DNA of 52,445 bases, the filler included, from Bipalium vagum (lineage: Eukaryota), in the NCBI GenBank assembly GCA_037834085.1. It is 3 parts of 3 records of this genome, joined end to end, with 100 filler letters (N's around TTAATTAATTAA, not from the genome) between each part and the next. Parts side by side here need not be neighbours in the genome. Positions count along the whole stretch, not along the records: positions 31,979 to 52,445 come from JBBMKC010252636.1; 2 more parts are not named here. The stretch is one strand, 5' to 3'. Each line of letters begins with the position of its first letter. Positions within the stretch are counted from its first letter, which is position 1. The position numbers and the translations under genes are program-made. A model generated the notes under the pieces. It saw only the letters and a list, made by a program, of their open reading frames with translations. It had not been told where the DNA came from and searched no databases. This document shows positions 4,374-52,445 of this stretch, in pieces.

Positions 4374-4967
4374 CAGGGTCTTCCAAAAGAAGCTTTACTA
4401 CTTTAAGTCGCTATTTCTCGTTACATTAAAATTAAAAAACCAAGTAATTCTATTTATACCTTTATTTAAACACAGATATTACAAAAAATTATATTTTAAA
4501 TATGTCATTAAAATGACAGCCTCTGGCAGCCTTACAAGTCTATCTTTATGGAATTTTGCATAACTTTTTGGCATAAATCAATTGAGATCATAGCGATTTA
4601 TTCCGAAATGTTGTCTTAGAGTTGTATAATAGTTTTTGGTTGATTAATATAAACTTTATCTTTTAGATATCTCCATAAGAAATAGTCTGGGGCCGTCAAA
4701 TCGGGAGATCTGGGAGGCCAATCAATATTACCGAAACTTGAGATCACGCCAGATGGAAAAGTTTCGTGTAATAATGCAATTGTTTTCCTATTTGTATGGG
4801 ATATGGCACCATCTTGCTGAAAGTAAATATTCTCCACATTAAAATCATTCAGATAAGGCTTAAGGAATGTTTCTATCATGTGTCGACATCTTTCTCCCAT
4901 TACTGTAACTGTTTTACCTGCAGCATTTTCGAAAAAGTATGGACCAAGCTTCTTTTGAAAGACTCTG
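4374..4967 (-). mobile_element. Internally deleted rosa-type (DD41D) Tc1/mariner element
   Basis: TIRs CAGGGTCTTCCAAAAGAAGCT / AGCTTCTTTTGAAAGACTCTG, each flanked by TA. ORF 4616-4900 has YFQQDGA...WPPRSPDLTAPDYFLW with 41 residues between the two Asp, and GPYFFEN upstream. Confidence 0.9.
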
Positions 4968-7900
4968 TATAAAGATAGTCAATGATATACTTTTGCGTAT
5001 AGTATTCAGAACTTGTTGAAAACTATCCTGGGTTTTAGTGGAGAACCCTTTGTGGAGAACTATAAATTAATATAATCAATCGATTTTAGGTTGAAGAAAT
5101 AATGTAAAATGATAAAAATCGTTTTGTTTTTTAATTTTAAGGATATGTCAATCACTGTTAAAAATACCGATAATTTTAATGTTAATGTTCTTTAAATACG
5201 ATATCTGATTCTGTCAATTAAATTTATAGTAGAAAAAACTAACGGTGGTTATTTGTTTCTCGATAGGTAACCAAGATGACAACATAAAAATTAAAAGATT
5301 ATCTCATTGTCTTATCTAGATTAAAAAAAAGTACCATCTCCAACAGAAAAGTGATAAAACCATAAAAATAACTTATTTTCCTTTTATTTTCCAGGATAAG
5401 TGTATATATAAAATGAATTGATTATATTTTTTATTTTTTATTTATTTATAAATATGACAATGTACTTCTAGAAAAACAATAATATTATTAATGTTAGTTG
5501 TGGCTAAAAAATCATTACATTCCATAATAATGTATTAATTCAAACCGTTTTCTGTTTTGTGCAATTTACTATTTTAAAAAAAGAAATTATAATACTTTTC
5601 ACATATAAAATTTTCCCATTTAATTCGAATATATTGAGCATTAAAATTTATGCTAGATTTTATTAAAAATTTAATTTATACCTTTATTTAATTATTAAAA
5701 TCTTTTAGCTCAATATACTGCAAATTAAATTAAAAAATTAAATATGTTACTCAGATATTTTAGCTTCTCAAAATTATTAATAATAATGATTGTTATTATT
5801 TATTTTGATTATTTTTTTCGGACGATTTCTAAAATAATTGATCATCTTAATTTCAGCTGCATTACCAGAAAGAGTCGTACAACAAAGAAATTCCGCCCAT
5901 TCTCGAAATACATGGAGTCATCTCAGTGTCATTCTTGTGATCCTGTTTATTTTTTGTGGATAATGATAAATTCCAAGTTTCTAGTCCCACTTTGTCCATA
6001 TCAAATCACAGAAATAGAAGATTCGATACAATTCGATCATTTTAAATAATATGAATTTCCTTTAAATCCTATTTTAAAGTATGATTCTTCTTTGAGTTTA
6101 ATATTTTCATTAAAAACAAACCGTCCAGACATTCTTGTGTCTAATCAAAATGTTAATTAATAAAAAATGGCGATAAAAGTTTGTTTGAAACAGAAATCCT
6201 CGAAAAGGGATCTGACATATTCTGTAAAAATAAAAATTGTGGAATAGTTGTTTTTTTTTGTTATTTTGCACAATAAATTTTTGTCGATTCATTGATGTAA
6301 AAAATGAGATATTCTAAGAAAAGCGTCTGATTATAATTTGATTTAAAGAGCGTTAAAATTTTGCCAAAAATATTTTTTGACAGATCAAGTTGATAAAAAA
6401 TATCGAATGATAGAATGATTGATCGCTTTGCACGATTTGAAGAGGCTCAATCTCCGACATTTACACCTTTGCATCAACCCGCGTTCAACATCTGATTGGC
6501 TGCACTTCGTGTTTGCCTCCTTAATAAACTATTTGGAACTTTTGCAAATGTGAAAAAATTTTACGATTGTATTCGTAAAAAATTACAATAACAAGATTTG
6601 TGGAAATAGTTTTCTTATTTGTGAATTATCAAAATAAAAAGTTGTTCGAATTATGTAAAAATTTTATATATTTTGCATCGAGAAGCAAAAATAAAAAATT
6701 GTGTATTTTCTGGGTATTTATATATTTATTTTAACACATTATCTGTATTTTAATTGGTTGAAAAATAGTCTGGTATCTTTAATTAAATAAATAAAGAAAA
6801 ATAATATCTTTAAATGAATTGATTTTAATTATGAAAAAATAAAATAAAAAAATCTCGGAAATGTAATTGATTGGGTGATATTTTATCAAATTCGCCATTA
6901 GAGTAAATAATTTATGAATTCTAAAATGAAATAAAAATTATAAGAATAATTTTAAAAATTAAGTAATTCTCCATATTTTTTCCTGATCATTAACTATTGA
7001 TATTTACCTCATTGCTAAATTATCGATAAATTCTCAAAAACTAAATCATTTATATTTACTTAATCTTCTCGATTCACACAATTCTTCTGATGACCACATA
7101 ACATAAATGCCATCTTTTTGTTGATCTATCAAGGTTTAATAAAACTATACTTTTCTGTTTCTCGCTGATATTCAATTGGAATCATTCTTTTATTATAATT
7201 CTTCTTTAAAATTAAATTTAAAGTTAAATTTAGTTTTACTATTAACTATTCTGAAAAATATCTAAATTATTAATTTAATTTTTAATTTATTTTATTTAAT
7301 TTATATTATTGATATTATTATTGGTCTTTATGTTATTATTTACATCTTTTATCGATGATGTTTATTAATTTTATTGAATTTTTTAATGAAAAATTATATT
7401 TATAGTCATTTAATATTATTGATTGTAATGTGTAAATTTTATTTAAAATAAGAAAAGAACTTTTCAAACAATTCTTAATTAATATTGCTTTCGTTTCCAA
7501 AATAAATAAGAATATTAAACAAGTTCTGTAATTTTAAATACGAAGAAGAAAAGTCCTGAAGATTTCTTTTTATCATTTTACTATTCTTTAACTTTGTTAG
7601 AGATTTTTATGTGCACCTATTTTGGATAACAGTTAGAGATAAAATGGAGATCTTATTGGAGATCAAGCAATCCATGACCAATTTTGATGGTCTGGAAAGA
7701 ATAATTCTAATTATTACAATGGAGATAATTATAATTTTTATTATAATAATAAAGTAAAATTAATTAATTATAGATAAAAAATAAGAAAAATAAATCATAT
7801 CCACAAAATCCAAAAATATTTACCTAAAGATCAGAATATCGGTCTGAGAAAATTTTGTTAAATTTAATTTTGAAAACCCAATAACTAATTACTCTGGAAG

Positions 7901-28814: not shown

Positions 28815-30733
28815 GATTCCACGTGAAATAAAAACCAGGTGGTTTGAGGTTGCATCCTCACACATTTTGCGCAATAATAATGATCATTAATGATTGTGAA
28901 TACTGATGAAAAGGAAATACTTTACCACAGTCGAATGCGGTCAGTTCAAGAATTTGATCATGAACAGGCCCCACAAAATTTTGCAAAGCCAAAGTTACAC
29001 TAAAAGAAACTGACGGTGACTTGTGTCCAGTTTAGTTCATCACACCTTCTTGAATCCCGGAAAAATTTACTATCAAAAAATTGAAGAAATGCACCTCAAC
29101 TTCAACAACATTATCCAGCATTAGTAAAAAAAGACCAATTCTACTTCACGACAACACTCAGCCATATATTGCACAAATAACCCTAAGAAAAATTGAACAG
29201 TTTTGACTACGAAATCCTTTTACATTCAGCAAATTCACCACACTTTTCGACAACTGACTATCATTTCTTAAAACATTTTGACCACATCTTAAGAGTAAAT
29301 ATTTTCAGAAACCATGAAGACATCAGAAATACCTCTAATGATTTCTTCGTTTCCAGAACTACAGAATTTTACGTTAGTGGCATAGGAAAATCTTGTTTCT
29401 TGTTGGACAAAATATATTTAATATAATGGTTAATATTTTGCTTAATAAAGTTTTGTACTTGAAATATTAGGTTGTTTAAAAAATAATATCGGTTTTCATG
29501 AAGCCATTTATTTAACGTTAATTTAACATTTTTTCTTTTGTTTTACTACTTAAATTATATGTCATTTTAAAGCGCAGATTTCAATCTACATTCTGGTAGT
29601 ATTAATGTTTTATATAAAGTTAAAATAATATATTTAATTAACATAGAACGTAAAATTGAAAAAAATCAATTATGACCGATTGTTTTTATGAATATAAACT
29701 GGGCCATAATGCAGCAGAAGCCAGTCGTAATATTAACAATGCATTCGGCGAAGGAACAGCTAACGAGCGGATGCTTCAACGCTGTTTCAAAAAATTTCTT
29801 GGTTGTGACGAGACGCTTGAAGATGATGAGGGTCGTGGACGCAAGACGGTGATTGAAAACGATAAACTGAAGACTTTGTTGGAGGCAAATCCTTGTACAA
29901 CAGCTCAAGAACTTACTCAAGAAATGAGTGTTTCTGTTGGAACCATTTGGAATCACTTGCGGGAAATTGGTAAATCTAAAAAGCTTGACAAATGGGTTCC
30001 ATACGAATTCAATGAAAAACAGAAAAATCATCGATTTGAAGTGGCCTCTTCTCTACTTTTGCGAAACAATATTGATCCCTTTCTCTACCGTATCGTAACA
30101 TGCGACGTGAAGTGGATTATGTATGATAACCGGCGTCGTTCGGCTTAATGGTTAGATTATGATCAAGCTCCACAACACTTTCCTAAACCAAAATTTTATC
30201 AAAAGAAGGTTATGGTGACTTTTTGGTGGTCACTAGCCGGTCTCATCTATCACAGTTTCTTCAACAAATCGATGAGATGCACTTGAAACTCCAGAAAAGA
30301 CAGCCTGTGTTAGTCAATAGAAAGGGAGTGGTTTTTTTTGCACAACGCTCGACCGCATGTTGCACAAAAATTAAACCAGTTTTGATACGAAACCCTGCCT
30401 CATCAAGCTTATTCACTAGACCTTTCGCCCATGGATTATCACTTTTTTAAACATCTGCAGAATTTTTGAAGGATAAATGTTTCAGAAATCAAGACAATGC
30501 CAAACAGGCCTTCAATAATTTCATCGCTACTTTTATGCAAATGGCATAAATAAACTTGTGACTTGTTGGCGAAAGTGTATTGATTCAAATGGATCTTATT
30601 TTGATTAGCTATTTTTTTTTAAATATATGCTTTCAAAGTCCGATATTAAAAAACGACATTATTTTTTGAACAACCTAATATTTACATTAAAAGCTTAAGG
30701 TCAAAAACCGACATCCATTTTCAGATAACCTAA
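28815..30733 (+). mobile_element. Older cecropia-type mariner (5'-truncated), split by the nested mariner at 29467-30678
   Basis: FEVASS..LRNNND, TDEK, ILLHDNTQP, HSANSPHFSTTDYHFLKHFD. The 3' UTR resumes after 30680 and ends in TIR ccgacatccattttcagataacctaa+TA. Confidence 0.8.
29467..30678 (+). mobile_element. Near full-length cecropia-subfamily mariner (Hsmar1-like), inactivated
   Basis: TA+TTAGGTTGTTTAAAAAATAATATCG ... CGACATTATTTTTTGAACAACCTAA+TA. Transposase YKLGHNAAEASRNINNAFGEGTANER, WVPYEF, TCDVKW, HNARPH, YSLDLSPMDYH, with an in-frame stop at 30148 and deletions. Confidence 0.95.
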
Positions 30734-31978: not shown

Positions 31979-33189
31979 ATAAATAATTCAACTTGTGCCT
32001 TATTTTTAACATATTTTTTAAAAAATTGCTAATATTTTGGACGGCACTGTATATAAATATTAATAACTTTGATAGTTTCTAAACACAAAAAATATGCATT
32101 TTCTTAGTGCGGCAATAATTAGTAATATATAATACTATATATATAATATACTATATATACACATACATATCACAAGTGAATAAAAAAATTGTAAAGTGAA
32201 ATTAAAATATTAATATATTCTTTAAAGAAAAATATGAATAATATTAAAATCTTATATTTTATAAGGCTGGTACATTTTTTTGTTATTTTGAATAATATAT
32301 ATAAGTAATAAAACATTTTATAAATAGTAATTAAATCTGAATTGATTATGTTTTAGTAATATCTGTTATTACTTAATATCTTCTTCCATCTTTCCACCAG
32401 TTTGTCTTAGCCTGTATTCCAGAAATCGCTAGATCTACTCAGAAAAAAATTGATTAATCACTTTTAAGGGACACCTAAAGCAGCTAGTGGAACTAAAAAA
32501 ATCTATTTGTACAAGGTCTGGAGAAAAAAAGGTGTAAAAGAAACTACCAATTGTGTTTTTGAAGGGTGTTTTTGCTTTGACGATATTTGGTTTTGTAGTT
32601 TCGCATTATCATGGAGAAGAATGATGATCATTACTTGACATAATTAATTCATGTAGTGTTTTCATTAACTGCCTGGTTTATATGAATTATTTCCCATTGC
32701 ATAAGACCGTCTCAATTCCATTTAATAGAGATCATGATTTTTTTTTATCCAAATCTTGTATAATTCTGGACCTTGCTTTATTTATCCAAACGTGGAAGGA
32801 TCAGATAACTTAGATAAACTTGGTCTATCAGATACGGATGAAAGAAGCCAAAATGAGTGTTAGTTAAAATTGGATTTGTTAGCTGGGAAATTTTTGTGCT
32901 TTGTTTTTAAATAAAATCTTTTGTTTATAAAATTTAAATGAAATGAAATGACAAAAAACTGACTTTTCAGAAAAAGGTCTTTTAAATAAATGTTTTTGGT
33001 ATTAAATTATATGATAAAAGTATAACAAACCACAAAATAATTAAATCATGAAGTATTACAGGGATTTTTTAAAATAGAAATTTTTCAGAATAGATAATTA
33101 ATTTTTTCAGTATTTAATTGATTTTTAAAAAATATTTCATTACTTTTTAAAAAAAAACAAAGGTTCAACATTTCTTTTTATTCAAAAAA

Positions 33190-33883
33190 TTTTCATGAGC
33201 AACGGCTTTTATTAAAAATGTATTTATATGGCGAAAATAATTTTGATAGTGTTCAGGTTTGATTTTATCCGATATCATTAGAATTGTTGTCAGCAGCTTT
33301 TTCAGAATTCAATATTTGCAAGAGATTTCCTAAATAATTTTCAAAACGTTTACCATTATAACCACCTTTGATTTCACATTTGTCGTTTTTACAGGCAGCC
33401 CAAACAGAAAGTTTCGACTTCTTACTGTAGTTACTTTTTTTTGCTGTTTCACCGATAACACAGCAACCGTATCGTTTTCCCATCGAACAATTCACTCCAA
33501 ACTCATCAACAAATATCAACCTGTTAACAGGTATCTTGTATAGTTAAATCGAGCTTCAATGCTATTGATAGAGTTTCTTTGGATTGGTTCTATAATTAAA
33601 ACTATAATGAAAACTTTGTATGCATTGATGAATTGATGCTATAAATATGTTTTGATTCATATTTGTTGCTGTTTCCTGATTGATTTTTCTAAGTGTGATG
33701 GAACAACTTTGGTTTTAATAAGATCTTTGATTTCTTCAATTATCTCACATTTTTTTCCTGCTAACGAATATTCCGGTTGTTCTGAATTTCCGGATTATTG
33801 ATTGAGTCGTGCTTTAATTAAGACGCAAAGCGTTAGAAATTTGAGCAATCGAGTTGTCTAGCTCGTGTTTTTTGATTACTCAT
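33190..33883 (-). mobile_element. IS630/Tc1-like transposase pseudogene
   Basis: LIFVDEFGVNCSMGKRYG..VIGETA resembles FIDESGFN....R.YG.S..G; an HTH-like region (SITLRKINQE) lies upstream. Confidence 0.75.
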
Positions 33884-34876: not shown

Positions 34877-35513
34877 CAGGTTTATGCAGAAATATATAGA
34901 AAATTATTCAGAAATATATAGAAAATTATTCAGAAATATATAGAAAATCATTTAGAAATATATAGAAAAAAATTCGATTTTTTCTATTTAATTTGATCAC
35001 ATTGTAGTCAGCCAAAAATATCAGCTGCACGGTTGCTATTAAAATTTCAGGTTTCATTGTTTTGTCATGTTTTTTATTATATCAAATTTACAAACATTTT
35101 ATGCTTCGAAATCAAAGACGGATCTTTCAATGGACTTTATTAGTGACAAGGTATGCAGGTATTGTATTGGTGATGGACAATTGCAGGTTCCATCACCGCA
35201 TAGATGTTATTAAGTTGCTGACAGAACGAGGTATTGCTTACAGATTTCTGCCACCATATTCGCATCAGCTACAATTCGCAAATACTGTATCATCATTTAT
35301 TAGAACCATTATACATCGAGACGATTGATTACTCAAGTACTCTTGTATTAAAGTGAATATTTTCGCAAGATGAGGCGGTTTATAGAAAAACCTTGGAGAG
35401 ACAATAATTTATTTTGTGTATATTTCCATTATATATCTGAATATTTTTCTATATATTTTGAATATTTTTCTATTTATTTTGAATATTTTTCTATATATTT
35501 CTGCGTAACCCTG
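34877..35513 (+). mobile_element. Non-autonomous IS630/Tc1-like element with ~100-bp TIRs built from tandem 21-22-bp units
   Basis: TA+CAGGTTTATGCAGAAATATATAGAAAA ... TTTTCTATATATTTCTGCGTAACCCTG+TA; internal VLVMDNCRFHH..LL..RGIAYRFLPPYS. Confidence 0.9.
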
Positions 35514-38409: not shown

Positions 38410-39900
38410 TTATTCAACTCAATAATTGCTTTTCTTATTTTGGTTAGCAGAAAACATTTTTTCTTTACCACAATTGTTACACATTTAGCTTCTAATGGTG
38501 ACTTAACGTATTTTAAACGGATAGCCATACTAAATGTTTACATTGCATCTTTTTAAAGAATCTCGGTAAATTACATGTACCATAAATCCATTTTCTTGAA
38601 CATCTTTCGGTAATTCAACCGCCAATATAGTAAACGCATTTAGTAAACCACAACATCATCTGCAAAGTCTTCAAAAGTTCTCCAACTTTCTGATTTTGAA
38701 CTTTAACCTAATGTTCACTATTCAGTATATCAAATTTAGACCTGACTCCAACTCTTAGGTGGTGCAAGTAATAACAATCAGTAAAGCAACAATTGTATTT
38801 ATATCACACAATCACAAAAGTACAGAAAGATAATCAAAAATCTGGGATCACAATTAATGTCCGAAATGTTTCACAAACCTTCCACTATCTTAGCAAAACA
38901 CTTTACAACCCAATAACAATAATTATAAAGAATGAATTAAATGTAATGTCTCAGCAATAATGTCTAATCAATTATAATTAAAGTTCAATTAAAACAAAAT
39001 ATTACTTGTACACTAAATTAATAATTACTTTACAAAAAATATAAAGTTAAAAGAAAATAGAAAGTTCTTACAATTTATCTTCTGTTAAAACTCCCGAGTT
39101 ATCGTCTGACCCCTAACGGTTGTTCACCGGTAACTCACTGATGGAGAATTTTAAGCATAGTCCTATAAAAATCTGAAAATACTTGAATATTAACAGCCAA
39201 TATCTTGGTCTTCTCGAACAAATACCTTTATCATCTCGATCAAATAATATCTTCCTCGAACAAATTTCGTTATCTTCTCGATCAAAAACCTTTATCTTCT
39301 TTAACAAAAATCTTAATATTATTTTGTACGTTCTCTGATGGGTGAAAATATGCTAGAATTCCTCTGCTTATATACTTTTTAGAACTGATCTTCATCTGGA
39401 GATTATTCTTGAAATAATCTCAAAATCATACTTACAAATCTAAAAAATTTATTAAAATTCTAAAATTCTATAAAAATTTTTTTCTGATGATCATTAATAT
39501 TTACTAAATACCTCTTTTGGACTTCTTTAAAAATATAAATTACTTTTGGAGGGTTGTTTTATTTCCTAGGTATTTTCAAAATAAAAATATCTGGGAATTT
39601 TTAATTGTTTTTCAAGTTTTAATTAAATTAAGTTATTAATATTATTATTATCATTAACAACTATACCCTTTTTATGATTTTCCTTGGTTATATTTCCCCA
39701 GGAGGGTGTCTTTGGTAAACCCATCACTAATATATAATTAGGGCTTACTAGGACATAATTTTAAATTGATCCAGAGTTATTCATTTTCGAGTTGTATGCT
39801 CATCTTTGATAACACAACGCATTGCTTCCATCGCATTATTAGTACTTGGGGCACACATCGCAGTACCATCGTATCAACTGTGATTTTTTTATTCATTCAT
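38410..39900 (-). mobile_element. Mutator-like (MULE) transposase C-terminal part with SWIM zinc finger, interrupted by an insertion
   Basis: Minus translation APSTNNAMEAMRCVIKDEHTTRK near 39790-39860, and WIYGTCNLPRFFKKMQCKHL..AIRLKYVKSPLEAK..RKAII near 38420-38590. Confidence 0.8.
38712..39659. mobile_element. Solo-LTR-like insertion (TGTT...AACA) inside the MULE
   Basis: Begins TGTTCAC and ends TTAACA; flanks cctaa/actat are only a partial TSD match. Internal ~20-bp tandem repeats at 39210-39310. The first ~250 bp recur at 40948-41190. Confidence 0.55.
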
Positions 39901-40675
39901 TTTTGAAATATCTGATGAAAATTGATTGTGACAAGCATTTATCTACAAACAGATTACATACTCTTTCAAATATTGATTCTGAATTACATAATTGTAGCAG
40001 GACAACAGTTATATCTCCAGCATATCCCGAATCTCAAAAAAATTCTTTGGCTGGATATGCTGTAGATATAAAATAAATTTTAAAAAAATGAAAAAAAGTA
40101 AAAAAAAATTTTAAAAAATAAGTAAGAAAATAGGAAAAATATATTAAAAAATAAGTAAAAAAATACGAAGCTTCGTGCAGTGAAAGTGCTAGAGCTGAAG
40201 GCTCGCTTCTTAAGAAACAGAGTCTCTAAATAAAAATCAAATTTTCTCTTCAATGGAGTGCAAATATTTAGACATTGAATGTCACCATGATTAAGCCATT
40301 CAAAAGCTTGATCGAGTGTAACTCTGTCAAAAAGACCAGAATTTGAGGCAGCACCAATTAAAGAAGAGATTGCAGTATCTTTGGAGTATACATGTACTTA
40401 ATGGAAGAATGACTTCCAAGACCAAGTATACTTCTCAAAAGACGTCGAATATTTGTTCCAATTTCATTGACTCCTTGCGTCATCTCATTGAACGTTATGT
40501 AATTATTCCGAAAAGCAAAAATCATTCGCGAATGAATAAAAGTGTGATAAGCATTCAACTTTTGCCATGGGTAAAGAATGCATTCGTAGCTGTTCGATAA
40601 TAACGATCGAGGTGGTGAATGAAGATTTTCACAAAAGTCATTGTTGACATGTGCATGGACTGCTCTGATCGCTGA

Positions 40676-40802
40676 GTTATGGACCTCCAAAGAACATGTT
40701 ATTAAAGCAATGAAACCTAATCGAAGAGCTTTGCGTAGTGGTAACGGTGGAAATGCAGAATTTGAAACAAAACTACACCGATGGGTCTTTAAGGAAAAAT
40801 AG
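40676..40802 (+). mobile_element. Short pogo-type CENP-B HTH fragment
   Basis: MKPNRRALRSGNGGNAEFETKLHRWVFKEK resembles RRA.RG.....PELE..L..WV.E.R. Confidence 0.55.
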
Positions 40803-40947
40803 CTTTAGTATCCCATCAAAAATGAAAAGAATATTTAAATAAAATACAATTAATTAATAATCAAATAATTTTATTTGACGAAGTACCTCAAAATTCAACT
40901 ATATAGAAATATAGAAATTTAAATAATATAAAATTTATTCATACTGC

Positions 40948-41190
40948 TGTTTACTATTTAGTGTATCAAATTTAGACCTGACTCCAACTCTTAGATAGTG
41001 CAAATAATAACAACCAGTAAAGCAACAATTGTATTTATATCACACAAACACAAAAATGCGAAAGATAATCAAGAGTCTGGAATCACAATTAATGTCTGAA
41101 ATGTTACACAAACATTATACTATCTTACACAAAATACACCACAACAATAATTATGAAGAATGAATTAAACGCAATTTCTAATCAAATACG
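40948..41190. repeat. Truncated second copy of the LTR-like sequence starting at 38712
   Basis: Shares TATCAAATTTAGACCTGACTCCAACTCTTAG and CAGTAAAGCAACAATTGTATTTATATCACACAA in direct orientation. Confidence 0.85.
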
Positions 41191-41987
41191 AATTTGATTA
41201 TTTATTATGTAGGAATATGAATATATTTTCAAATGATAATAAAAATAAAAATTATCCATGAATGAAATGTTCAAATTCATATAAATCAATTAATTTATTT
41301 AAAATAAAGAAAAATCATATATTGACTTTATTATAAAAAAAATAAATACATTTGTGATAAGACATTAGAAAATGTGAGAAATAGATAAAATATAAAAATA
41401 TGTACTAGTATAAATGAGTTTGAAAATCAAGCATCAATTTACTGAACATACAACCATTCATATGAAAAAGAACTATATAAAATTTGACAAGTTTAATATT
41501 TCTAAATAATCACATTCTGCTATCAAGTCTTGATGATAATAATAATTTTTATCCAATTTTAATGTCATCATTTTTCTATTAGAAAAATAACATTAAAAAT
41601 GTGGAAGGTGGAGTCTTCACTGTCAAATTTAAAACAACTTCAAAATTTAATTTTAATTCAATTAAAGCAATTATTTCACAAAAGTTGACATGATTGAAAA
41701 AATACTAGTATCAATGAAGCCAGAACAAATAGAACGGAATAAATTTCAACAAGAAAAAATATTTTTGAAGAATTACGCAAAAAACTAGTCTCTAAAAAAA
41801 TGGAATTATTTTATTGTCTTGTATGAAATTGCTACTAAAAATAAATCTCTTTATCGATCGACCATTATTATTGGCTAATAGACATTAATCTGTCCCAAAT
41901 CAATTATTAAGTCCCAATTTGGGCTGTTCTTATGAAAAATATTGTGCTTAAATGATCAAAATAGTTTGATTTTTGGTATTTATGCAG

Positions 41988-44900
41988 AACAAGGAAATAT
42001 TTCAGATGTTGTTGGACGGTGGACAGTCTACAGCGATCCCAGAACAAGTAACTATGTATATATTGAGAAACTATTGAAATCGTGTATTTAGAAAAGTGCA
42101 CGCAATTTAGCTATTCTGCATGGAAATTGTATGGAAAGTATAATTGAGAGAGATGTGTCAAAGATATCAATCTTTCAACAGAACAATGGAAATAAGATAT
42201 CAAATAAGAGACCAACAGAACCGAAAGGACATCCAGGTAAAGTCGATCAACAGTTTTCTTCAATAATATTTCCGAACTCAGGCAATTTACGGAATGTTGG
42301 GCACATGTTTTTTTCGGGACAATATTTCCAAATCCTTTTTGACAGTATTTTATTTTGTCAACAAAATTTTTCTTTTATGATTGGAATATTTTTTAATCAT
42401 GTCACCTTTGCCAGAGATCACAGCATGGTTACACTGATGGGTTAATCTCAAATGTTTCCGTATAATTCATAATTAAGATTGTAGATTTTATTGAACAGAA
42501 ATATTTTCCGTCAGTGGAAACCAATTTGAAATTCAAATTGACCCCGGTGTTTATCATTGTCATGGTTTTCGTGTTGTTTATATTCGGCTTTTTGAGTGGA
42601 CTCCTCATTTCATGGGAAGGAGGACTGACTGCAGCTTTAACAATATTATTTATCGTATTTTTTGGCATATGTAATTGGAAATCAATTTAATTTTTCTATT
42701 TATGTGATCAGAAATATTTTATTTTCAACAGTGTTCATATTGATTGGAACTTATTGTCATGATTGGAAAATTGCACAGAAAGCAGGATTTTCTCTTTCTA
42801 AGTCAATAGTAACTTTTCAGTTATGGTTAAAATTACTATTTCTTAATCCTTCTCAGAGTAGTGAGAAAAATATTGGTCAACCAAAGTACTTGAAATACTA
42901 TATCGATATTTAGTTTCGTATTAACTATTTTTCAGATTTTTATCAACTCATTTAATATTAAATGATTATTCAAGTAGTACTTATACTGGAGCTAAATTAA
43001 TAGAAAATATATGGAAATCTGTTGAAAAACATTACAGCTCATTTTTCATTCGCTATCATAAAGCCTTATTAAATCAAGGTGAAAATGTTAATTTGTTTGT
43101 TTTAATAAGTCAATAATTCAGATTATGGAAAAGGAAAATTCAAAAGAATTTGTTGCTTACCATTATTTGTTTATTTTATTGTGGCATTGATCTGTTTATT
43201 GATCATTTTAATAATATTAAAAATTCATCAATTAAGAATTTTAGCAGTCTTCGAAAATAAATCTACTCTAATTGGATTTTGTTTCTTTCTTATTATTTTT
43301 TTATTTTGTATCCTTATTTTCCTCTACGTTTTACTGAAGCCTATTCGTTCTGCAATCCGCAGTCCTTCATATGAAATAAAAGAATTCTTAAAGTCTTGCC
43401 ATGTCTTTGATCATATTTCAACCCAAACATTCATCATGTCCGAACTTAATAATGTTCTTCACTTTTTGTCAACAGTGGACAATTATGAAAGTATTCATGG
43501 GCGATGTGTTGTTGTTTTTGTTGATGTAACCCAGGTAACTGATCTCTGTGTTTTGATTGAATTTTGCTCATTTTATCAAATTTTCATCAAAAACAAAAAC
43601 GAAGTTCAGATTTGTTTCCTTTTCTTTATTGATCATCAATTATATGAGAGGATTAAATTAACCGAAGATATGAAGAGCTTTATTAAGTTCTCTAAATTGT
43701 TTTCATTCTGTTTATATTTTAATGAGTCCGGCGACTTTGGAGACTTTCATACAAAAGTTTGGTTGTTTTCCTATTAGTGTTCGTTCAATACTTTACTAAA
43801 GGTTATAAATCCATACGATATTCGTTATAGTAGGAACAATGCTGATGGTACAATACTGGCTTTTGATCTAAGGACCACGAAGAATATAGAAAACAAAATT
43901 GAGAAAAAAGATGATTTTCAAGAGATAACTATTCAAACAATATCGGAATTTTTACTCACAAAATCCAATCTGAGTGAGTTTAATCAACCGTGTGTCAACG
44001 ATCTGATTATAGCATCAGTTTTTTCATGTAAGTTTGAATAACCATAATTTATAAATTGATTGAAAATATTTTCAAAATTAATCGATATATTTTGAAGGTT
44101 AAATAATGGTTCAATATACAGTGTTCTTCAGATAAATAAATCTTTTCTTAAGGCAAATCGGATGTCATTCGAGACATCTGTGTTTTTTGTTATAAATGAT
44201 TAATTTAATCTCAACCTAATATTAATTTTTAGCTGTACTTTTGTAGCTATATAGTGTTTAATTTCAACGAAAGTGGTCGCTTTGCTAATTTAAAAACCAC
44301 TCTGAGACTGGATTCTAAAAAAAATTTATAGCATAAGAAATATTAAATTAATCTTGACAAGAGATCAGCAGTGATATCAAAGTTCAACAGAAAAATCATT
44401 TCATATTTGAACTATTAGAAAAATTAAATAAAAGAAATTTCATAATATTATAATCATAGTAGATAATTTCACAATTCTTTTTCTCCTCTACTCAATCCTA
44501 TTGACATATTTTCTAAATGGATAAACATTATTAAATCATGCAAACCAAATACTGTTATTGAACTGGAAAATTCTATAAACAATGCTCATACCAAAATAAC
44601 GAAGGATGATTGTGTAGGGTATTTTACCTATAGAAGAGAAATCGTACTCGAGGTAGTTAGACGAGAAGATTTTTAACTGATTGTATTACGTCGTCTCATA
44701 AGTCTTTATGGAAAAGATGTATAGAACAAAAATTAATTTTATGAAAACACAAGAATATTTTTATTCGATAATATAATGCATACCGTTATTAATTATTTTG
44801 TCAAACGTTCAGCAAAAGTTTAATGCCATGCTTTAAGAACTTCTGGTCCTTTACGGTGAAATGCACAATAATGGCAATTTTGACAGCTCATTTACTATTG

Positions 44901-47900
44901 AATTCTTTTCTCTTTAAGAAGGGGTGTAATGAACAAAAAAAATAATCTTTTGGACCCATATCTGGACTTATATGGTGGTGAGGAAGAATGCACCAGCCAA
45001 ACTCTTTTAGTTTCTCCCTGATAATTTTTTATATGTACGGTTTTGTATTATCTTGATGAAGATAAACAGCAGAGATGGTCTGGTAAGTTTCAATTTATCA
45101 CGAAGTTCACTTAATGCCAACAGTAGACCTCACTAGTGATGGTTTCACCCATATTCAGGAGCTCCATATTTATTATTCCCTTCATATCCAACCACACATG
45201 GAGAACTTTTTTCGGATGAAGACCTGGTTTAGACGTTAAGATTGGTTCTTCACCAGAACCAAACCACTGCTTTTTACGCTCACCCATTTTTCATCACAGC
45301 ATACAACACTTTCCAGAAATAGGTCTAGATCATGGCTAGTGAGCAAAGACATGCAAACTGTCACCCGATTCAAAAGTTGCTGTTCATCTAGAGCATTTGA
45401 AATTCATTTTCCGCATTTAAAAGTTTTCCCATTTGAATTTGACAGTTCAATTCATTGAATGCTATTAAAACGTGAATATTATCAGTGAATAATTTTTCAG
45501 TTGTCCGACCGAAGGAGAAAGGTAATTCAAAAAAAAATAACACGCTTAATAGGTGTTAAGTGTTTTGTACTTGTCACTGAGAACTTGTTTGACAAACTCC
45601 GGCAGACTTTCCGAATGACCTGATATCATATATTTTTAAAATTAAAGTTATAAAGATTCGCTGATATTCTACCAACTTCCGCTTTCCTCCTGCAAGGGTT
45701 TCGTTTTTAGTATTATGTTACATAAAATTCAGAAGTAAAAATATTTTGAATAAAATTTAGCGCATTAATTTAAAAATAAAATATGTGACAGATTTTTTGA
45801 GAATTTCGTTTAGATATTTTGAATTTTTTCCAATGTGTTTTTATTAATATTTTCCAAATTATTTACATAAAAAATCAATATTGAAATCAAATGTCATTTC
45901 AGTCATATACACATTTTTATAAAAACTTTTTTTAGTCATTTCCATTTTGTAATTCTATTTAACTCATACATTTTTCAAATAAAGTGGAATTTTGAGACAC
46001 TCTTTGACAAAGGAATAATATATATGTATGTACTATTACTTATTTTTATCACTGCCATTTAAAATTCTTCAAATATTAAAGACGATATAAGACGGATCAC
46101 ACGATTAATCTATCACTGCGATCTTTTACAGTTTAGTGTCATTTAAACAAAATAAATTCTGTAGTTAAATGCTTAATTATGAAATATCGTGATAATCCAT
46201 ATCACAATTATTTTCAGCACATCACAATTTTATTAATCGCGCTTATCTTTTTAAATTGGTACTGTTACAAAATTATATTTAATTAACTTATGATAAAAAA
46301 TTATTCAGTTATTTCAAATTAATTTGAATTCGATCTTTAATGGAAAGATTAAAAAGGTTTCTTGAAAGGCAGAATTATTTTTGTTATGGAAGTTCCAAGA
46401 GAAGTTAAAAATAATGCAACCGATACAAATGTTTGAATATTCAAAGGAACGTGTTATAAAACAGGGGACATTTATTCAAAAATCCTCGTCTTTAGAAAAA
46501 TAAATTTTCTAAATTGAATATGTAGCGAAGATTTTCAAAATCAATCGATTTGGCATCTGTAATTTTACTCAAATCTTTCTCTATATCATAATTGAGATTA
46601 TTTTTAGAATAAATTCCACCAAAAGTGGTTTTGTTTAAAATATCTATTTTAATCATTATAAATAAACGAATATACAAAAATTTATAATTTTTAAAAAACT
46701 TTTATAAAAATTCGTTAATTAGTAAGAACTCTAATAATTTTTATATTATAAAAATGATTTATTTAATGTGATGATTCCAAAATTATATATATATATATAC
46801 CATTAAATATATATACCAGTTGAATCAACTTGTCAATCGTGCAAGATCAAAATGAATCTTCAGTTAAATCAAATGAGATTTAGATGTGGTCGTAAATCTT
46901 GCAGTAATCAAAACAAATAAAAAATATACCTTTTTCGATAACCACAACATTAAATTTCATGAAATCCTATACATTGCATACCTATGGCTTACAAAAGCCC
47001 CAATATCATCAATAATGACAATCACTGGCTGCAGCACTGCAATGTACGCTTATAAAAATGTTTCGAGTAATCTTTCATTTCATGATATAATCGGAGCTTA
47101 AAATATCATCGTGGAAATTGATGAGGCGAAACTGAGTTATCATCGTGGTCATGTTGTAGATGGAGCTTTGGTTATTGGTGGAATCGAACGTACTGACGAA
47201 AAGAAATTATTGATTATAGAAATAAAAGACCGTTCTGCTAATACGTTATCCAAAATCATCTCAGATCATGTTAAACCAGGCTCAATAATATATACAGACA
47301 TGGGAAAAGGTTACAACAATTTAAAAACTATAGGATATCAACAAGGTACAGTAAATCATCATAAAGAATTCATAAATGAAATAACGGGAGTCTTTACTAA
47401 CACAACAGAAGGTACCTGGAATGGCCTCAAAGTTCAAATAAAGCAAGAAATAGGACCAAAGACATAATACAAGACCATCTCTCAGAATTTATATGGAGAC
47501 GAATAAATAAAAAACACATTTGAGAGTCATTTCTTATTGCTATAGGATCCACAAATGCTAATGTTGTTTAATAAATATTATTATATCATTCTTTGATTTA
47601 TTATTAATTGTACAATCATTATATTCGGCCATAAAGAGGGCCACTTAATGTATAATATAAGAATATAATATAATATAATTAAATAAAAATGATATATTTA
47701 AGCAAAACTACCTGACCTATAGTGGCATTTATACTAAAAATTAACCAATAATTGATATTTACTTTTCCAACATTAATATCACACCATTGGATTTTTAATT
47801 CTATTTCTTAATATATCTGATTTGATTTAATTGACCTTCACAAAACCCATGGTATCCACTAAGAAAACCAATCTAAAACCCACAAATGATCCAATAGCAT

Positions 47901-49171
47901 GAGTTTTTTGAGACCGATGATGAGTCTCCTAAAGTCACAGCAGATGGTCATCAATAGTATATGTGTATAAGAAGGTGTCGTTAGTCTTATATTTATCTGA
48001 TAATAAATAATATTGTTATATGGGTGAAAGTAATATTTAATAATACAATAATCTTTCTGAACAAAAGATATTAAAATCGAATTATAATTATGCAGTATGT
48101 AATATAATTATAACTATAAGTAATATTACAAAAAAATATTAAATTATTTATAATTAATATTTTAAAATTAATTTTAATTTTAAAATTGTAAGATTTAAAA
48201 GTGATTTTTTGTTTTAACTTACTAAAAATAAAGAAGTATGTTTACAATAATTATTTATTGTAACCAAAATAAGTACTTTTAATGATTTTGAACAAAATAA
48301 GTTAACTAAATTAATAACGTACTATCGCTTGTTACTAAATTTATTTGGTTTTTATAATTAGAAAGAATCAGTTAAAAAAGAAGTTTTAAAATTAGTGAGA
48401 AATTATTTTAACCAATCAGAATGTTCAATTCGTGAAATTTGATAGTGCGATTTAAGTTTAATTTTTTTTACTAACGACCTCAAGTGAATACGTTTGATAA
48501 TAATTGAGCTTTTAAGAGCAGTTTCAGAGTGACAATAAAGTACACAAGTTTTAAATACCATAACAAATTTCTTTCTATTTTGAGTAATTAATTAATACAA
48601 AATATCCTGAAACATTTTCTAATTATTTAATATTAATCACTGTCGAAGATTCTTAAGATTTTTAAAATTAGTAGCTATTAAATTATATTCAAAAACCTTA
48701 AAACGTGACCAAAGTCACATTATTTCATTAGTTTAATTTAATATTAACTGTGCTCTATTATCGATATTAAGAAGTATAAATTATTGTCTTGATGAATTAT
48801 TGTTTTAGATAACTTGTCAAAATTGAACGAAATTGCAGATATCTTTTTATTAATGGATTTGGTAGCATTCTTTTACCACTGGCCTTTCCTTTCAACATGG
48901 GTAACTTTATTCCTACTGAAAAATATGCTCTCTTTTGAAACATCTTTGACTTTACTAAACTTTTACGAAGACATTATGGAAGAATTAGTGCAAACGAAAA
49001 ACATTACACAAGAACGAATGTTTTTAGAATTATCACAATGTGATTTAGACGTCTGCATTTTAAAATCTTTGTTGATTAACAATGGTATTGGGCGATTGAA
49101 AATTGAAAAGTTTCTTGTCTTAAGTCAATATTATCATTTGCAAAACGTTCCAGTACAGCATTTTCTAAGAG
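41988..49171 (+). CDS. kidins220-like: Kidins220/ARMS-like KAP-family P-loop domain protein with 4 TM helices. Exons: 41988-42047, 42092-42440, 42485-42670, 42732-42885, 42936-43078, 43122-43756, 43802-44027, 48809-49171 (5' and 3' ends unresolved)
   Basis: All seven introns are GT-AG (44, 44, 61, 50, 43, 45, 4781 bp) and join into one stop-free frame of 2116 nt. Colinear motif matches to recalled Kidins220: LWLKLLFLNP~LLLKLMFVNP; GKGKFKRICCLPLFV~GKKKWKKTCCLPSFV; TVDNYESIHGRCVVVFVD~TIDSFTQNQTRLVVIID; HWPFLSTWVTLFL~QWPYRTSWLILYL; TLLNFYEDI~TLKTIYERI. Confidence 0.85.
43122..43756 (+). CDS. Largest exon of the Kidins220-like gene (TM3-TM4 and Walker B region)
   Basis: Acceptor aattcag|AT and donor AAA|gtttgg; overlaps most of ORF-track 43181-43777. 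Confidence 0.85.
44300..44680 (+). mobile_element. IS630/Tc1-like transposase 3' fragment (intronic)
   Basis: IIIVDNF..; SPLLNPID.FSKW (about SP.LNPIE..FSKW); ITKDDCVGYF. Confidence 0.7.
44686..45623 (-). mobile_element. Decayed mariner (intronic)
   Basis: Minus translation FLESVVCCDEK.., RKKQWFGSGE, VLHVWLDMKGII..ELL..GETI, PPY. TIR actttccgaatgacctga+TA. Confidence 0.75.
46800..47570 (+). mobile_element. Merlin (IS1016/IS1595-related) transposase pseudogene (intronic)
   Basis: VEIDEAK..YHRGH.VDG.LVIGGIER, DRSANTL, VKPGSIIYTD.GKGY, VNH..EF, TNTTEGTW, HLSEFIWRR; has a stop and frameshifts. Confidence 0.9.
48809..49171 (+). CDS. Distal exon of the Kidins220-like gene (post-NTPase helical region)
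   Basis: Phase-1 acceptor tgttttag|AT matches the phase-1 donor T|gtaagt at 44027/44028; putative donor G|gtaata at 49172. Otherwise it reads through to the stop at 49248. Confidence 0.8.
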
Positions 49172-50059
49172 GTAATATAGTTTCACCACACCAGCCTTAC
49201 ATATTCACCATCGAATTACAGATTTGGGCTCAACAAATAATATTTTGAAACGTTAGTTCCATTAATCAATGGTAAAGGGATTTTTTGATTGCTATTTATA
49301 ACGGTTAATGGCAATAACTAAATTTCAATTGGTTATATATTTTTATGAAAGTGAAAGTTGAGTTAAAGAATGATTTCATATTTTTACGCTCATTTATTTT
49401 GTTTTAATAATTATAAAAATCTTACGATAATGAGGGTACGGTCGTGATTTTAAATTTTAATCAAAAAATCTAAATCCAGAAATTCGATTTTCAAAGGGTT
49501 ATTCTTTCATTATTGATGAAAGTTCTTTTAAAATGACTTATGATTGATTAAACCCAAGATTCAAAAAACGACATTTCATATTGAACAACCAATTAATTTG
49601 GAAGAATAATTTGAATCAATAACACAAAATCCGATTTTTTAATGATATTTGTTTTAGAAATTTTATTTAAAAATGAGAAAAAATATAAACAGAAACAAAA
49701 TTTAAATATTTTATAATTCGACGACAGTTTTGTATCTTGAGTTATTTTGCTGAATCCTTAAATTTTGGTTTAATTATTTGCTCTCCAATTTTTAAGTTAC
49801 TGGATTTATAAGGCGCCCACATTTTAATCTATTCAATTGAACTAAACAAATAATATCACTTGAATTAATGTCATTTTTATTTAGAAATAACTTTAATTTA
49901 GAAAATATGTAGACAAGCTTTTTGCAAAACTGATTTTGATTTTAATTTTGCCTATTTTGTTTCAATACATTTGACAAGTATCAAAGTATGTGACCTTTTA
50001 AACTAGATGAAATGATACAAGACAGAATCCATAAATCATCATCATCATCCAAATTTACA

Positions 50060-50800
50060 CTTATGAATTGAACATAGTATTGTTGGAGTTTTAAGAGATT
50101 ATGTTCCTTACTAATTAGCTTGTTATTTAAATCTAATTGAAAGGTAACAAAAGATGAACGGGTGGGTGCTACACCAGTTGAGTGAAAAACAAAGAAATCA
50201 CCGTTTTGAAGTTGCATCTTCATTGCTTTTAAGCAACAGCAGTGATCTATTTCTCCACCGAATTCTGGGTGGATGAGAAATGGATTCTATAGGACAATTG
50301 ATGGGGTTCGACACAGTGGTTGGACCATGACGAAGTTCCTAGGCACTATAAAAAATCAATTTTGCACCAAAATATGTTATGTTATAGCTTAGTAATTATA
50401 ATAAGAAAGTTATGCTTTATATTTGGTGGGATATAGAAGGTCTTGTGTACCAGGAACTTTTGAAACCGATAGAAACGGTTTTGGTGGAGCGATATCAACA
50501 TCAGCTAAAAAGATTAACTGATAAATTTATTAAAACAAGATCTGGCAATTAATATAAAGTCGTTCTTTTGTATTAAAAAGCATTTGTATTTCAAGACATG
50601 ACTCAAACAGATTTTTATCTATTCATGCCAATCGCATATTCTCTGGAAGGTTTGCGATTCAATTCATACTAAGATGTTCAAAATATGGTGCCAAATTGGA
50701 TTCATTCCATTGAAAAATCATTTTATGATTGTGTTATATCCATGTTACCAGGTTTATTGGAGAAAATAATTTTTTTAATGATGGAAAATACTTTGATTGT
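50060..50800 (+). mobile_element. Two adjacent mariner fragments (cecropia-like, then mauritiana-like)
   Basis: WVLHQLSEKQRNHRFEVASSLLL...DEKWIL, then KVMLYIWWDIEGLVYQELLKPIETV..ERYQHQL. Confidence 0.75.
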
Positions 50801-50924
50801 AATGCGTCTATTTGTCATAAAATAAATATTCAAAGTTATTTAAAAATTTTAAATTAATGCACCCTTTTAATAAATATTTACAAAACCGGTGATATTCATT
50901 TTTCTGTTTTTTTTACTTTTATTA

Positions 50925-52442
50925 CCGTATTTGTCGGACTAAGCCGCACCACAAAAGCAGAAATGTATTATAATTTAGGTGTTGCGACTAATAGTCCGAT
51001 GCGGCCTATACATTGATGGTAAAAATTCTTAAAATTTTCTGACTCCAATAAAAAATAAATATGTTTGTTTAAGTAGTCTTTAAGCATCTCATTTAAAATG
51101 TCTAATATACAATTATAATCATTTACGTTTTTTACGATGTAACAAATTATTTGTGATATGTTTATATTTAAACATCAAATTTACGTTATAATAAATGTTT
51201 TAAATTTTTATCCATGAAACGATCATCATATAGCGCAGAATAAAAATTAAAAGCGATTGAATTAGCTAAAGAAAGTGAAAATCGGAAAGCTGTAGAACTT
51301 AATGAGTCAATAATCAGAAGATGGAGGAAGCAAGAAGATGAGCTGAGACTGGCCAAAAGTCTTGTAAAAGCTTTCATGGAAACACTCCACGATGGCCAAA
51401 GCTCAAGAAGATGATCTTAAACATTTGGTCCTTGAAATGCGGTCACTCGGTAAAAGCATCTCAAGAGTCTCTATGCAGCTCAAAGCCAATACATTAGCTA
51501 AAGAAATGGGAATTATGAATTTCACAGGAACACAATCTTGAATCAGAATTCTCCAGATTCATGAAACGAAATAATCTTTCGATTCGGTGCAAAACTACTT
51601 TAGCCCAATGTCTTCCTGCCAATTTTAAAGAAAAGGCAAGTATATTCCGTGAATTTTGTCAAAAGAAAAATTAATTTTTTTTAAGAGAAAAACATTGCAT
51701 AAAGGTAAATTCCATGACGGAGTTGTGGTGAAGGCGAATGAAAAAGAATGGATGAACAAGGAATTAATGCGAGTTTGGTTAAATGAAGTTTTTATTAAAA
51801 GACCAAGTGGGTTTTCCCACACGTCATCCTCAATGCATGTCTGTGATTCAATACGTGTCCATCTTACCGAAGCTGTAAAGTCATTAGTAAAACGAGCCAA
51901 TACGTTTTAACGGTTATCCCAGGTGGATTAACTAAGATTCTTCAACCTCTTGATATTTCAGTCAATAGATCATTTAAAGCCAAATTAAGAAAAACTTGGG
52001 AACAGTGGATGACATCAGGAGATCATACTTTTACTAGAACAGATAGACAGCGAAGAGTTGATTATGTGATAATTGAATGGATTTTTGAAGCTTGGAACAT
52101 TATCTCAACATCAACAATTAATAATGGCTTTGTTAAAGCAGGCATAATTAATAGTTTTGACGTACAAAGAAAAGTACAAACAGAAAATTCCGCTGTGAAT
52201 TCAGATAAAACTTTTGATTATGATGAAACTTTTGAATTCTTACAAAACTAATAAAATAATTTGGTAAATATATTATTTAGTGTTACTAGTCGATTTCTGT
52301 TAAACTGATTTATTTGAAATGTGTCTAAACTCCTCACACTTCGTATTTTAATAACGCGGCTTATAGTCCGATGCGGCTTATACGTTAATTTTGTATTCTG
52401 TGCAAAACTTTCAGAGTGCGGTTTATAGTCCGACAAATACGG
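50925..52442 (+). mobile_element. pogo-superfamily (Passer/POGK-like, DD35D) element with both TIRs; transposase inactivated
   Basis: TA+CCGTATTTGTCGGACTA ... TAGTCCGACAAATACGG+TA. Coding remnant 51214-52251: MKRSSYSAE*KLKAIELA (Brinker-like DBD), CENP-B HTH, and D-SIRVH...IPGGLTKILQPL-D with 35 residues between the Asp after restoring one frameshift. Confidence 0.92.
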
Positions 52443-52445
52443 TAC

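Follow-up and report, generated by a model that had tools for sequence, protein, structure and literature searches.

Pseudo-enzymes are common in P-loop families, and vertebrates have in NKPD1 an ankyrin-less KAP-domain protein with transmembrane (TM) helices. The closest described system to the gene reported here is Kidins220/ARMS, a scaffold composed of ankyrin repeats, a KAP nucleoside triphosphatase (NTPase) domain and a SAM domain (PF07693, PF23307). A 2026 preprint terms the human domain a 'potential' NTPase, argues for a pure scaffold role and reports base editing that suggests KIDINS220 to be a scaffold in which enzyme activity is of no relevance (10.64898/2026.08.25.747159). This makes the conservation of the P-loop in animal Kidins220 puzzling, as a scaffold role is argued, yet the motif is kept in 110 of the 120 homologues listed in our search. 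The bacterial KAP and YobI-type NTPases, such as PifA and Tmn, represent a P-loop NTPase lineage with membrane helices, and Tmn defence is reported to require Walker A and to be abolished by G66A/K67A (10.64898/2026.03.01.708804). Here we analyse a gene of the triclad Bipalium vagum (assembly GCA_037834085.1) located at 41988-49171 on the plus strand of a 52,445-nt stretch joined from three records, hereafter the window, of which positions 31,979 to 52,445 come from JBBMKC010252636.1.

The window gene shows the same order of parts as Kidins220/ARMS, namely the ankyrin end, KAP strand 1, TM1-2, a cytoplasmic segment, CCxP, TM3-4, the Walker B strand and a WPY-type helical region. In contrast to Kidins220/ARMS, Walker A and DGLD are gone, the core following Walker B is unrecognisable when set against canonical proteins and the rate of change is extreme, while the ankyrin array, the SAM domain and the long C-terminal tail were not found within the window. 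Unlike Tmn, the window protein is without Walker A and comes from an intron-bearing animal gene. Its introns and what is left of an ankyrin repeat link it to Kidins220 proper rather than to NKPD1, for which a literature search combined with P-loop returned no structure paper by title. Our overall reading, to which we assign a probability of about 0.6, is that the gene encodes a P-loop-less, Kidins220-derived, ATP-independent scaffold that more probably stands in for canonical Kidins220 than regulates it.

The gene model consists of eight exons that join, at predicted junctions, into 2116 nt or 705 codons with no stops, and all seven introns (44, 44, 61, 50, 43, 45 and 4781 nt) are GT-AG, in agreement with the original prediction of eight in-phase exons and some 705 open codons. 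Hydropathy analysis reveals four strong hydrophobic segments at model residues 160-178, 186-204, 312-330 and 347-365, as well as a fifth, just at the threshold of 1.8, that corresponds to the Walker B strand. Combined with the profile alignment, these data show that all four TM helices come after the Walker A position and before that of Walker B, so that the earlier claim of four helices within the domain holds. The human KIDINS220 TM map in PMC11408833 was used for comparing helix positions.

References for the ancestry of this gene were obtained by scanning contigs from metagenomes with the Walker A motif of canonical proteins, which yielded 37 loci including long Kidins220 open reading frames (ORFs; Pfam PF07693), and by a further search in which 120 of 191 Kidins220 protein matches were listed; these 120 are the canonical proteins in all counts. 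The model scores 54.2, 55.9 and 37.6 bits against three of the references by BLASTP, and none of 900 shuffles matched any of these scores. A hidden Markov model (HMM) of 44 rows, made of 43 listed canonical proteins and the locus L010 with no window sequence included, matches the joined model at 106 bits (E 7.8e-35), compared with a maximum of 21 bits among the shuffles that gave a score (884 of 900). The match spans from just past the Walker A helix to just short of the Walker B Asp. Furthermore, in a scan free of any gene model, in which 2909 six-frame fragments of the window were compared with a Kidins220 profile, the top four fragments are exons 6, 4, 8 and 3 (E 1.5e-11, 5.5e-6, 0.0055 and 0.0092, respectively), and the exon 5 ORF ranks fifth, level with noise. 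Profile-profile comparison of exon 6 gives an hhalign probability of 97.2%, and 116 of the 120 listed canonical proteins were matched at E<1e-3 with about 20% identity. The homology to Kidins220 is collinear across the KAP region and the helical region that follows it.

Next we compared intron positions, using alignments built without intron information. Canonical introns were called automatically in genomic loci; some of these calls are wrong, and only the recurrent ones were used, which lie at L010 positions 397 (phase 0), 456 (1), 511 (1), 572 (1), 629 (2), 679-681 (1) and 1024 (1). Introns 1-5 and 7 of the window gene map to 397, 509, 572, 627, 678 and 1024 in a first alignment and to 397, 509, 572, 624, 681 and 1025 in a second, with phases identical to the canonical ones in both cases, while intron 6 falls in an unalignable linker. 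Depending on the alignment, six or five of the seven introns have a canonical position (within 3 residues) and phase, and none of 200,000 random placements reached five. These matches support the predicted junctions and identify exon 2 as the Walker A exon. Collectively, the profile score, the shuffles and the introns uphold the Kidins220/KAP ancestry originally proposed, and descent from Kidins220/ARMS, as judged from sequence, is solid.

KAP strand 1 is best placed at FMIGIF within exon 2 and, counted back from the conserved intron, A-R-D (42410-42418) occupies the canonical G-K-S position. The Walker A position, given by the best strand-1 placement and the intron anchor, is MIGIFFNHVTFARDH (42377..42421, plus strand), a placement of low confidence at the level of the residue register because MAFFT gaps the loop differently. 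The window gene has no P-loop under any register. The motif [AGS]xxxxGK[ST] does not occur in any plus frame of 40301-52445, which excludes a rescuing Walker A exon within that span; both the loss of Walker A at this place and the lack of an alternative exon restoring GxxxxGKS are thus in line with what had been proposed. At the Walker B position, VVVFVDVTQ (43508..43534, plus strand), the first Asp is kept and DGLD is lost, the second acidic residue being gone as originally described: the alignment shows DVTQ in the window gene and DGLD in all 120 listed canonical proteins. Walker A among these same proteins takes the form xxWG[ST]GKS in 110, ends in GKC or GKG in 3 and has no site by pattern in 7, several of which are short. 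With both Walker motifs lost, the domain likely no longer binds or hydrolyses ATP, as far as motifs can tell. Because both Walker tests fail we do not class the gene as an active KAP NTPase, and because neither an ankyrin array nor a SAM domain turned up we do not class it as a canonical Kidins220.

Partial decay of the P-loop was also seen elsewhere, in two mite proteins (P0121, P0130) and a crinoid protein (P0098) that are otherwise canonical Kidins220s with a Walker A ending in GKG or GKC. An alternative Walker A for the window gene, IFGIYAEQGNISD, lies in another frame over exon 1 and was rejected as a chance-level look-alike: it ranks third of 36,782 window 14-mers, behind two unrelated ones, it is also without GK[ST], and its frame aligns worse.

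To find relatives, exon 6 was searched against 1.84 billion representatives, which returned one true relative, P0001, on an ENA contig; another hit, P0002, is a repetitive false match. P0001, of which one exon only is seen, is 46% identical to exon 6 over 201 gapless residues and has the same FVDxT Walker B without DGLD (IVTFVDATG, thus DATG in place of DVTQ). Compared with the window gene, 91 of 189 residues are identical with no gaps or stops, of which the core from Walker B on is the best kept (40/73) relative to TM3-4 (25/62) and the linker (26/54). Neutral simulations to the distance of P0001 acquired 11 stops on average and none of 1000 was stop-free, which indicates, from sequence comparison, that exon 6 is under purifying selection and fits the conserved coding gene of the original prediction. 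The P0001 ORF runs out just past K-V, like window exon 6, suggesting a shared intron. All 7 rows of the exon 6 alignment share two Asp residues, that of Walker B and one that follows the next strand. The core after Walker B is at shuffle level against the canonical proteins (25 of 60 shuffles reach its score), yet it is where the window gene and P0001 agree best, and we therefore regard it as a new consensus rather than simple decay. None of the 622 candidates from a word-index search proved to be a longer relative of exon 6, and none of 125 pattern matches to an orthologous locus in metagenomes was confirmed.

AlphaFold2 models exon 6 as two long helices followed by a beta-alpha-beta unit, with a predicted local distance difference test score (pLDDT) of 63 when canonical rows are included; the same elements appear from the two planarian-type rows alone at a low-confidence pLDDT of 52. 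Foldseek and VIA-align searches with the exon 6 model gave no significant match and returned helical hairpins only. Given its new consensus, kept in both species, the alpha/beta core may still fold and have a structural role. In a quick tree, the stem leading to the window gene and P0001 carries about 10 changes per column, compared with well under 2 on most canonical branches, and the window gene sits on this saturated branch without a resolved placement.

We then weighed whether the locus could be a pseudogene or a decaying gene, its 5′ part lost among transposons and the remainder yet to gather stops. The upstream ankyrin exons were not found, an in-frame stop lies within the ancestral exon 1, and remnants of transposons lie on both sides of the gene and occupy intron 7, all of which would fit such decay. 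The ankyrin scans were, however, so insensitive that exon 1 itself did not reach significance, and the 705 open codons, the intactness of every splice site and the absence of stop-free outcomes among the neutral simulations argue for long selection, present function aside. We consider decay very improbable, and place at the same low level a remodelled loop that, with Arg for Lys and the first Walker B Asp kept, still binds nucleotide or a phosphate ligand. Such binding would be consistent with the two invariant Asp residues of exon 6, with the Arg that takes the place of the Lys when the register is anchored on the intron, and with the tolerance of GKG or GKC by canonical-type mite and crinoid proteins; against this, both glycines are lost, an Asp replaces Ser/Thr and bulky residues occupy the loop, and such loop changes abolish the phosphate cradle.

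A more serious alternative is the one favoured by the original prediction, in which the genome also encodes a Kidins220 with an intact P-loop and the window gene is a dead-enzyme paralogue that regulates that copy or co-assembles with it. The length of the stem in the quick tree would suit this, since such acceleration is common after duplication, and mixed oligomers are conceivable by analogy with the bacterial relative Tmn, described as oligomeric (10.64898/2026.03.01.708804); weak KIDINS220 matches in the planarian S. mediterranea, given below, could also be read in its favour. Against it stands the TBLASTX table of Forsthoefel et al. comparing 28,069 S. mediterranea transcripts with human (PMC7117911, Figure 7 source data). 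In this table, the best match of human KIDINS220 is an ankyrin, dd_3523, the ANK3 orthologue (31%), whereas XPR1 has a reciprocal match. Canonical Kidins220s of molluscs, bryozoans, rotifers and mites reach 51-63% in their best ungapped matches to zebrafish, and no Kidins220 of this canonical grade is present in the S. mediterranea table, which weakens the proposed role as regulator of a canonical Kidins220. In addition, no named flatworm occurs among the 120 of 191 matches listed, which is weak evidence as the list is ranked. We thus find the paralogue unlikely, though clearly less so than decay or a remodelled loop, and moderately favour a fast-evolved stand-in for canonical Kidins220 over a regulator of one.

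Several observations weigh against the reading of the gene as a P-loop-less stand-in. An HMM built earlier from 9 references failed to recover the model (-22.8 bits, through composition bias), and a Pfam scan found no KAP domain in the single exon ORFs or in P0001. The Walker A region aligns weakly (the N-terminal part gives 2.5% in hhalign, with a score of 19.3 versus a maximum of 18.1 in 60 shuffles), so its assignment leans on the intron anchor, and P0001 covers exon 6 only, leaving Walker A outside the comparison. Three S. mediterranea transcripts (dd_Smed_v6_11743, 15438 and 9630), on which a literature search returned no paper, match KIDINS220 weakly, at 36-40% over about 70 aa in the same table (PMC7117911), and may represent P-loop-bearing copies that have diverged less; the table itself is a single transcriptome from a different species than the window. 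Finally, ankyrin repeats 6-10 form the main XPR1 contact of the human protein and were not found in the window gene.

On balance, we propose that the gene is a triclad Kidins220/ARMS descendant in which the four-helix membrane module and the post-NTPase helical region persist and both Walker motifs are lost, and whose product would probably neither bind nor hydrolyse ATP. The membrane module is its best-kept part, which points to an ATP-independent membrane scaffold that may escort or hold partner membrane proteins, presumably acting through the TM helices and the surfaces next to them. As to the partner we can but guess, and XPR1 is the best candidate because one TM helix of KIDINS220 is in contact with XPR1 in the human structure and because S. 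mediterranea keeps XPR1. The gene is real, long under selection and of Kidins220 descent, and we infer that it is transcribed.

A broader and more tentative hypothesis, which we hold as possible rather than probable, is that triclads are without canonical Kidins220 and have replaced it by a form in which the P-loop is absent and little of the ankyrin array is left, with XPR1 kept. If true, the NTPase site conserved in other animals would be dispensable across a whole lineage and the four-helix membrane module would be the core of Kidins220 function. A P-loop-less version under selection offers a natural test of why the P-loop is conserved, in a group that includes the RNA interference model S. 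mediterranea, and could likewise show if XPR1 phosphate export can be served by the TM module on its own. Routine annotation does not pick up the gene (ungapped BLAST of the model against zebrafish gives E 8, and Pfam fails on single exons), and some planarian genes considered lost may just be diverged. A literature search on Kidins220 and planarians, with most subscription papers outside its reach, found no prior description. The name KIDINS220 does not appear in the searched supplements of PMC6453901, PMC7117911, PMC8028764 and PMC11410931, nor in 12 of the 29 files of PMC12660999; the supplement of PMC6109357 is also without it but is uninformative, as the XPR1 control is absent too. Structural resources were equally silent, with no match in a PDB sequence search for either exon 6 or the canonical KAP region (the solved KIDINS220 structure in PDB, 9jxq, is the ankyrin part only) and no usable ESM Atlas match.

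The exons follow the canonical layout as follows, all on the plus strand. Exon 1 (41988..42047) holds the final 20 codons of a degenerate ankyrin repeat, a weak sequence signal, and is assigned by its end at the canonical phase-0 intron 397. Exon 2 (42092..42440) carries the ankyrin remnant, a linker, KAP strand 1 and the erased Walker A, and ends at the canonical phase-1 intron 511 after the Walker A helix. Exon 3 (42485..42670), assigned by profile, hydropathy and intron, encodes TM1 and most of TM2 up to the phase-1 intron 572, and exon 4 (42732..42885; profile E 5.5e-6) the TM2 end and a juxtamembrane helix up to a phase-2 intron (canonical 629, mapped to 627 or 624). Exon 5 (42936..43078) comprises the KAP strand-2/helix segment and ends at the phase-1 intron 679-681, based on profile alignment and intron match. 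Exon 6 (43122..43756), supported by the profile, P0001 and the AlphaFold2 model, comprises TM3, TM4, a long helix, the Walker B strand and the remaining alpha/beta core. Exon 7 (43802..44027) contains a linker and the start of the post-NTPase helical region before the phase-1 intron 1024, by profile and intron match, and exon 8 (48809..49171) aligns to the profile within that region, with HWPFLSTW where canonical proteins have QWPYRTSW, and has its donor at 49172. Within exon 2, 42237-42281 is a possible in-frame 45-nt intron, although the same stretch also aligns as coding; judged by eye, its acceptor falls near the end of the canonical phase-1 intron 456.

The description of the gene as apparently intact holds for the stop-free joined exons only, as neither a definite start nor an ankyrin array nor a SAM/PDZ tail was found. 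An in-frame ATG at 41982..41984 (plus strand) is a candidate start from sequence and overlaps the acceptor used in the original prediction. The ORF in the exon 1 frame opens at 41970, after an in-frame stop at 41967-41969, and because of this stop the ancestral 33-codon ankyrin exon now measures at most 26 codons. No ankyrin exons turned up upstream in the window, in scans so insensitive that even exon 1 scored non-significant, and no significant fragment of a SAM-like domain or PDZ-binding tail was found in the window, which stops 3.3 kb past exon 8. If the donor at 49172 is unused, a read-through tail of 25 codons (49172..49248, plus strand) would end at the stop 49246-49248.

The window as a whole is AT-rich (20-32% GC) and full of transposon remnants. 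Intron 7 (44028..48808, plus strand; 4781 nt) contains two of them: a broken ISXO2/IS1595-type transposase at 46877-47467 (plus strand; PF12762, E 1e-14), which we take to be what is called Merlin in eukaryotes, and, at about 44950-45400 on the minus strand, a frameshifted transposase remnant that, going by its motif, is presumably mariner-like. Upstream of the gene lies a non-coding repeat in two copies about 2.2 kb apart (~38710-38960 and ~40950-41185). Downstream, a pogo-type DDE_1 element occupies 50923-52444; its 19-nt terminal inverted repeats are perfect, whereas its transposase is broken. Mutually related mariner (Mos1-type) remnants are located at 29660-30148, ~28830-29180 and ~50120-50450, and DDE_3 (Tc1-type) remnants at 4616-4978, 33265-33543 and 35008-35328.

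Among the metagenome loci, a GC-rich contig (L032:39-1292) encodes a protein that combines ankyrin repeats with a KAP NTPase domain; its Walker A resembles that of Kidins220 but its layout differs, and it is probably non-animal. Elsewhere in the window, a 189-codon ORF without Pfam match (22580-23149, plus strand) adjoins a GC-richer stretch upstream of a neuropeptide Y/F receptor exon, a large 3′ one (20078-20956, minus strand), for which tblastn found no 5′ exon in the window. With S. mediterranea NPYR-6 this receptor exon shares 66% identity, which points to a host that is most likely a triclad other than S. mediterranea, and none of the other 43 matches exceeds 38%.

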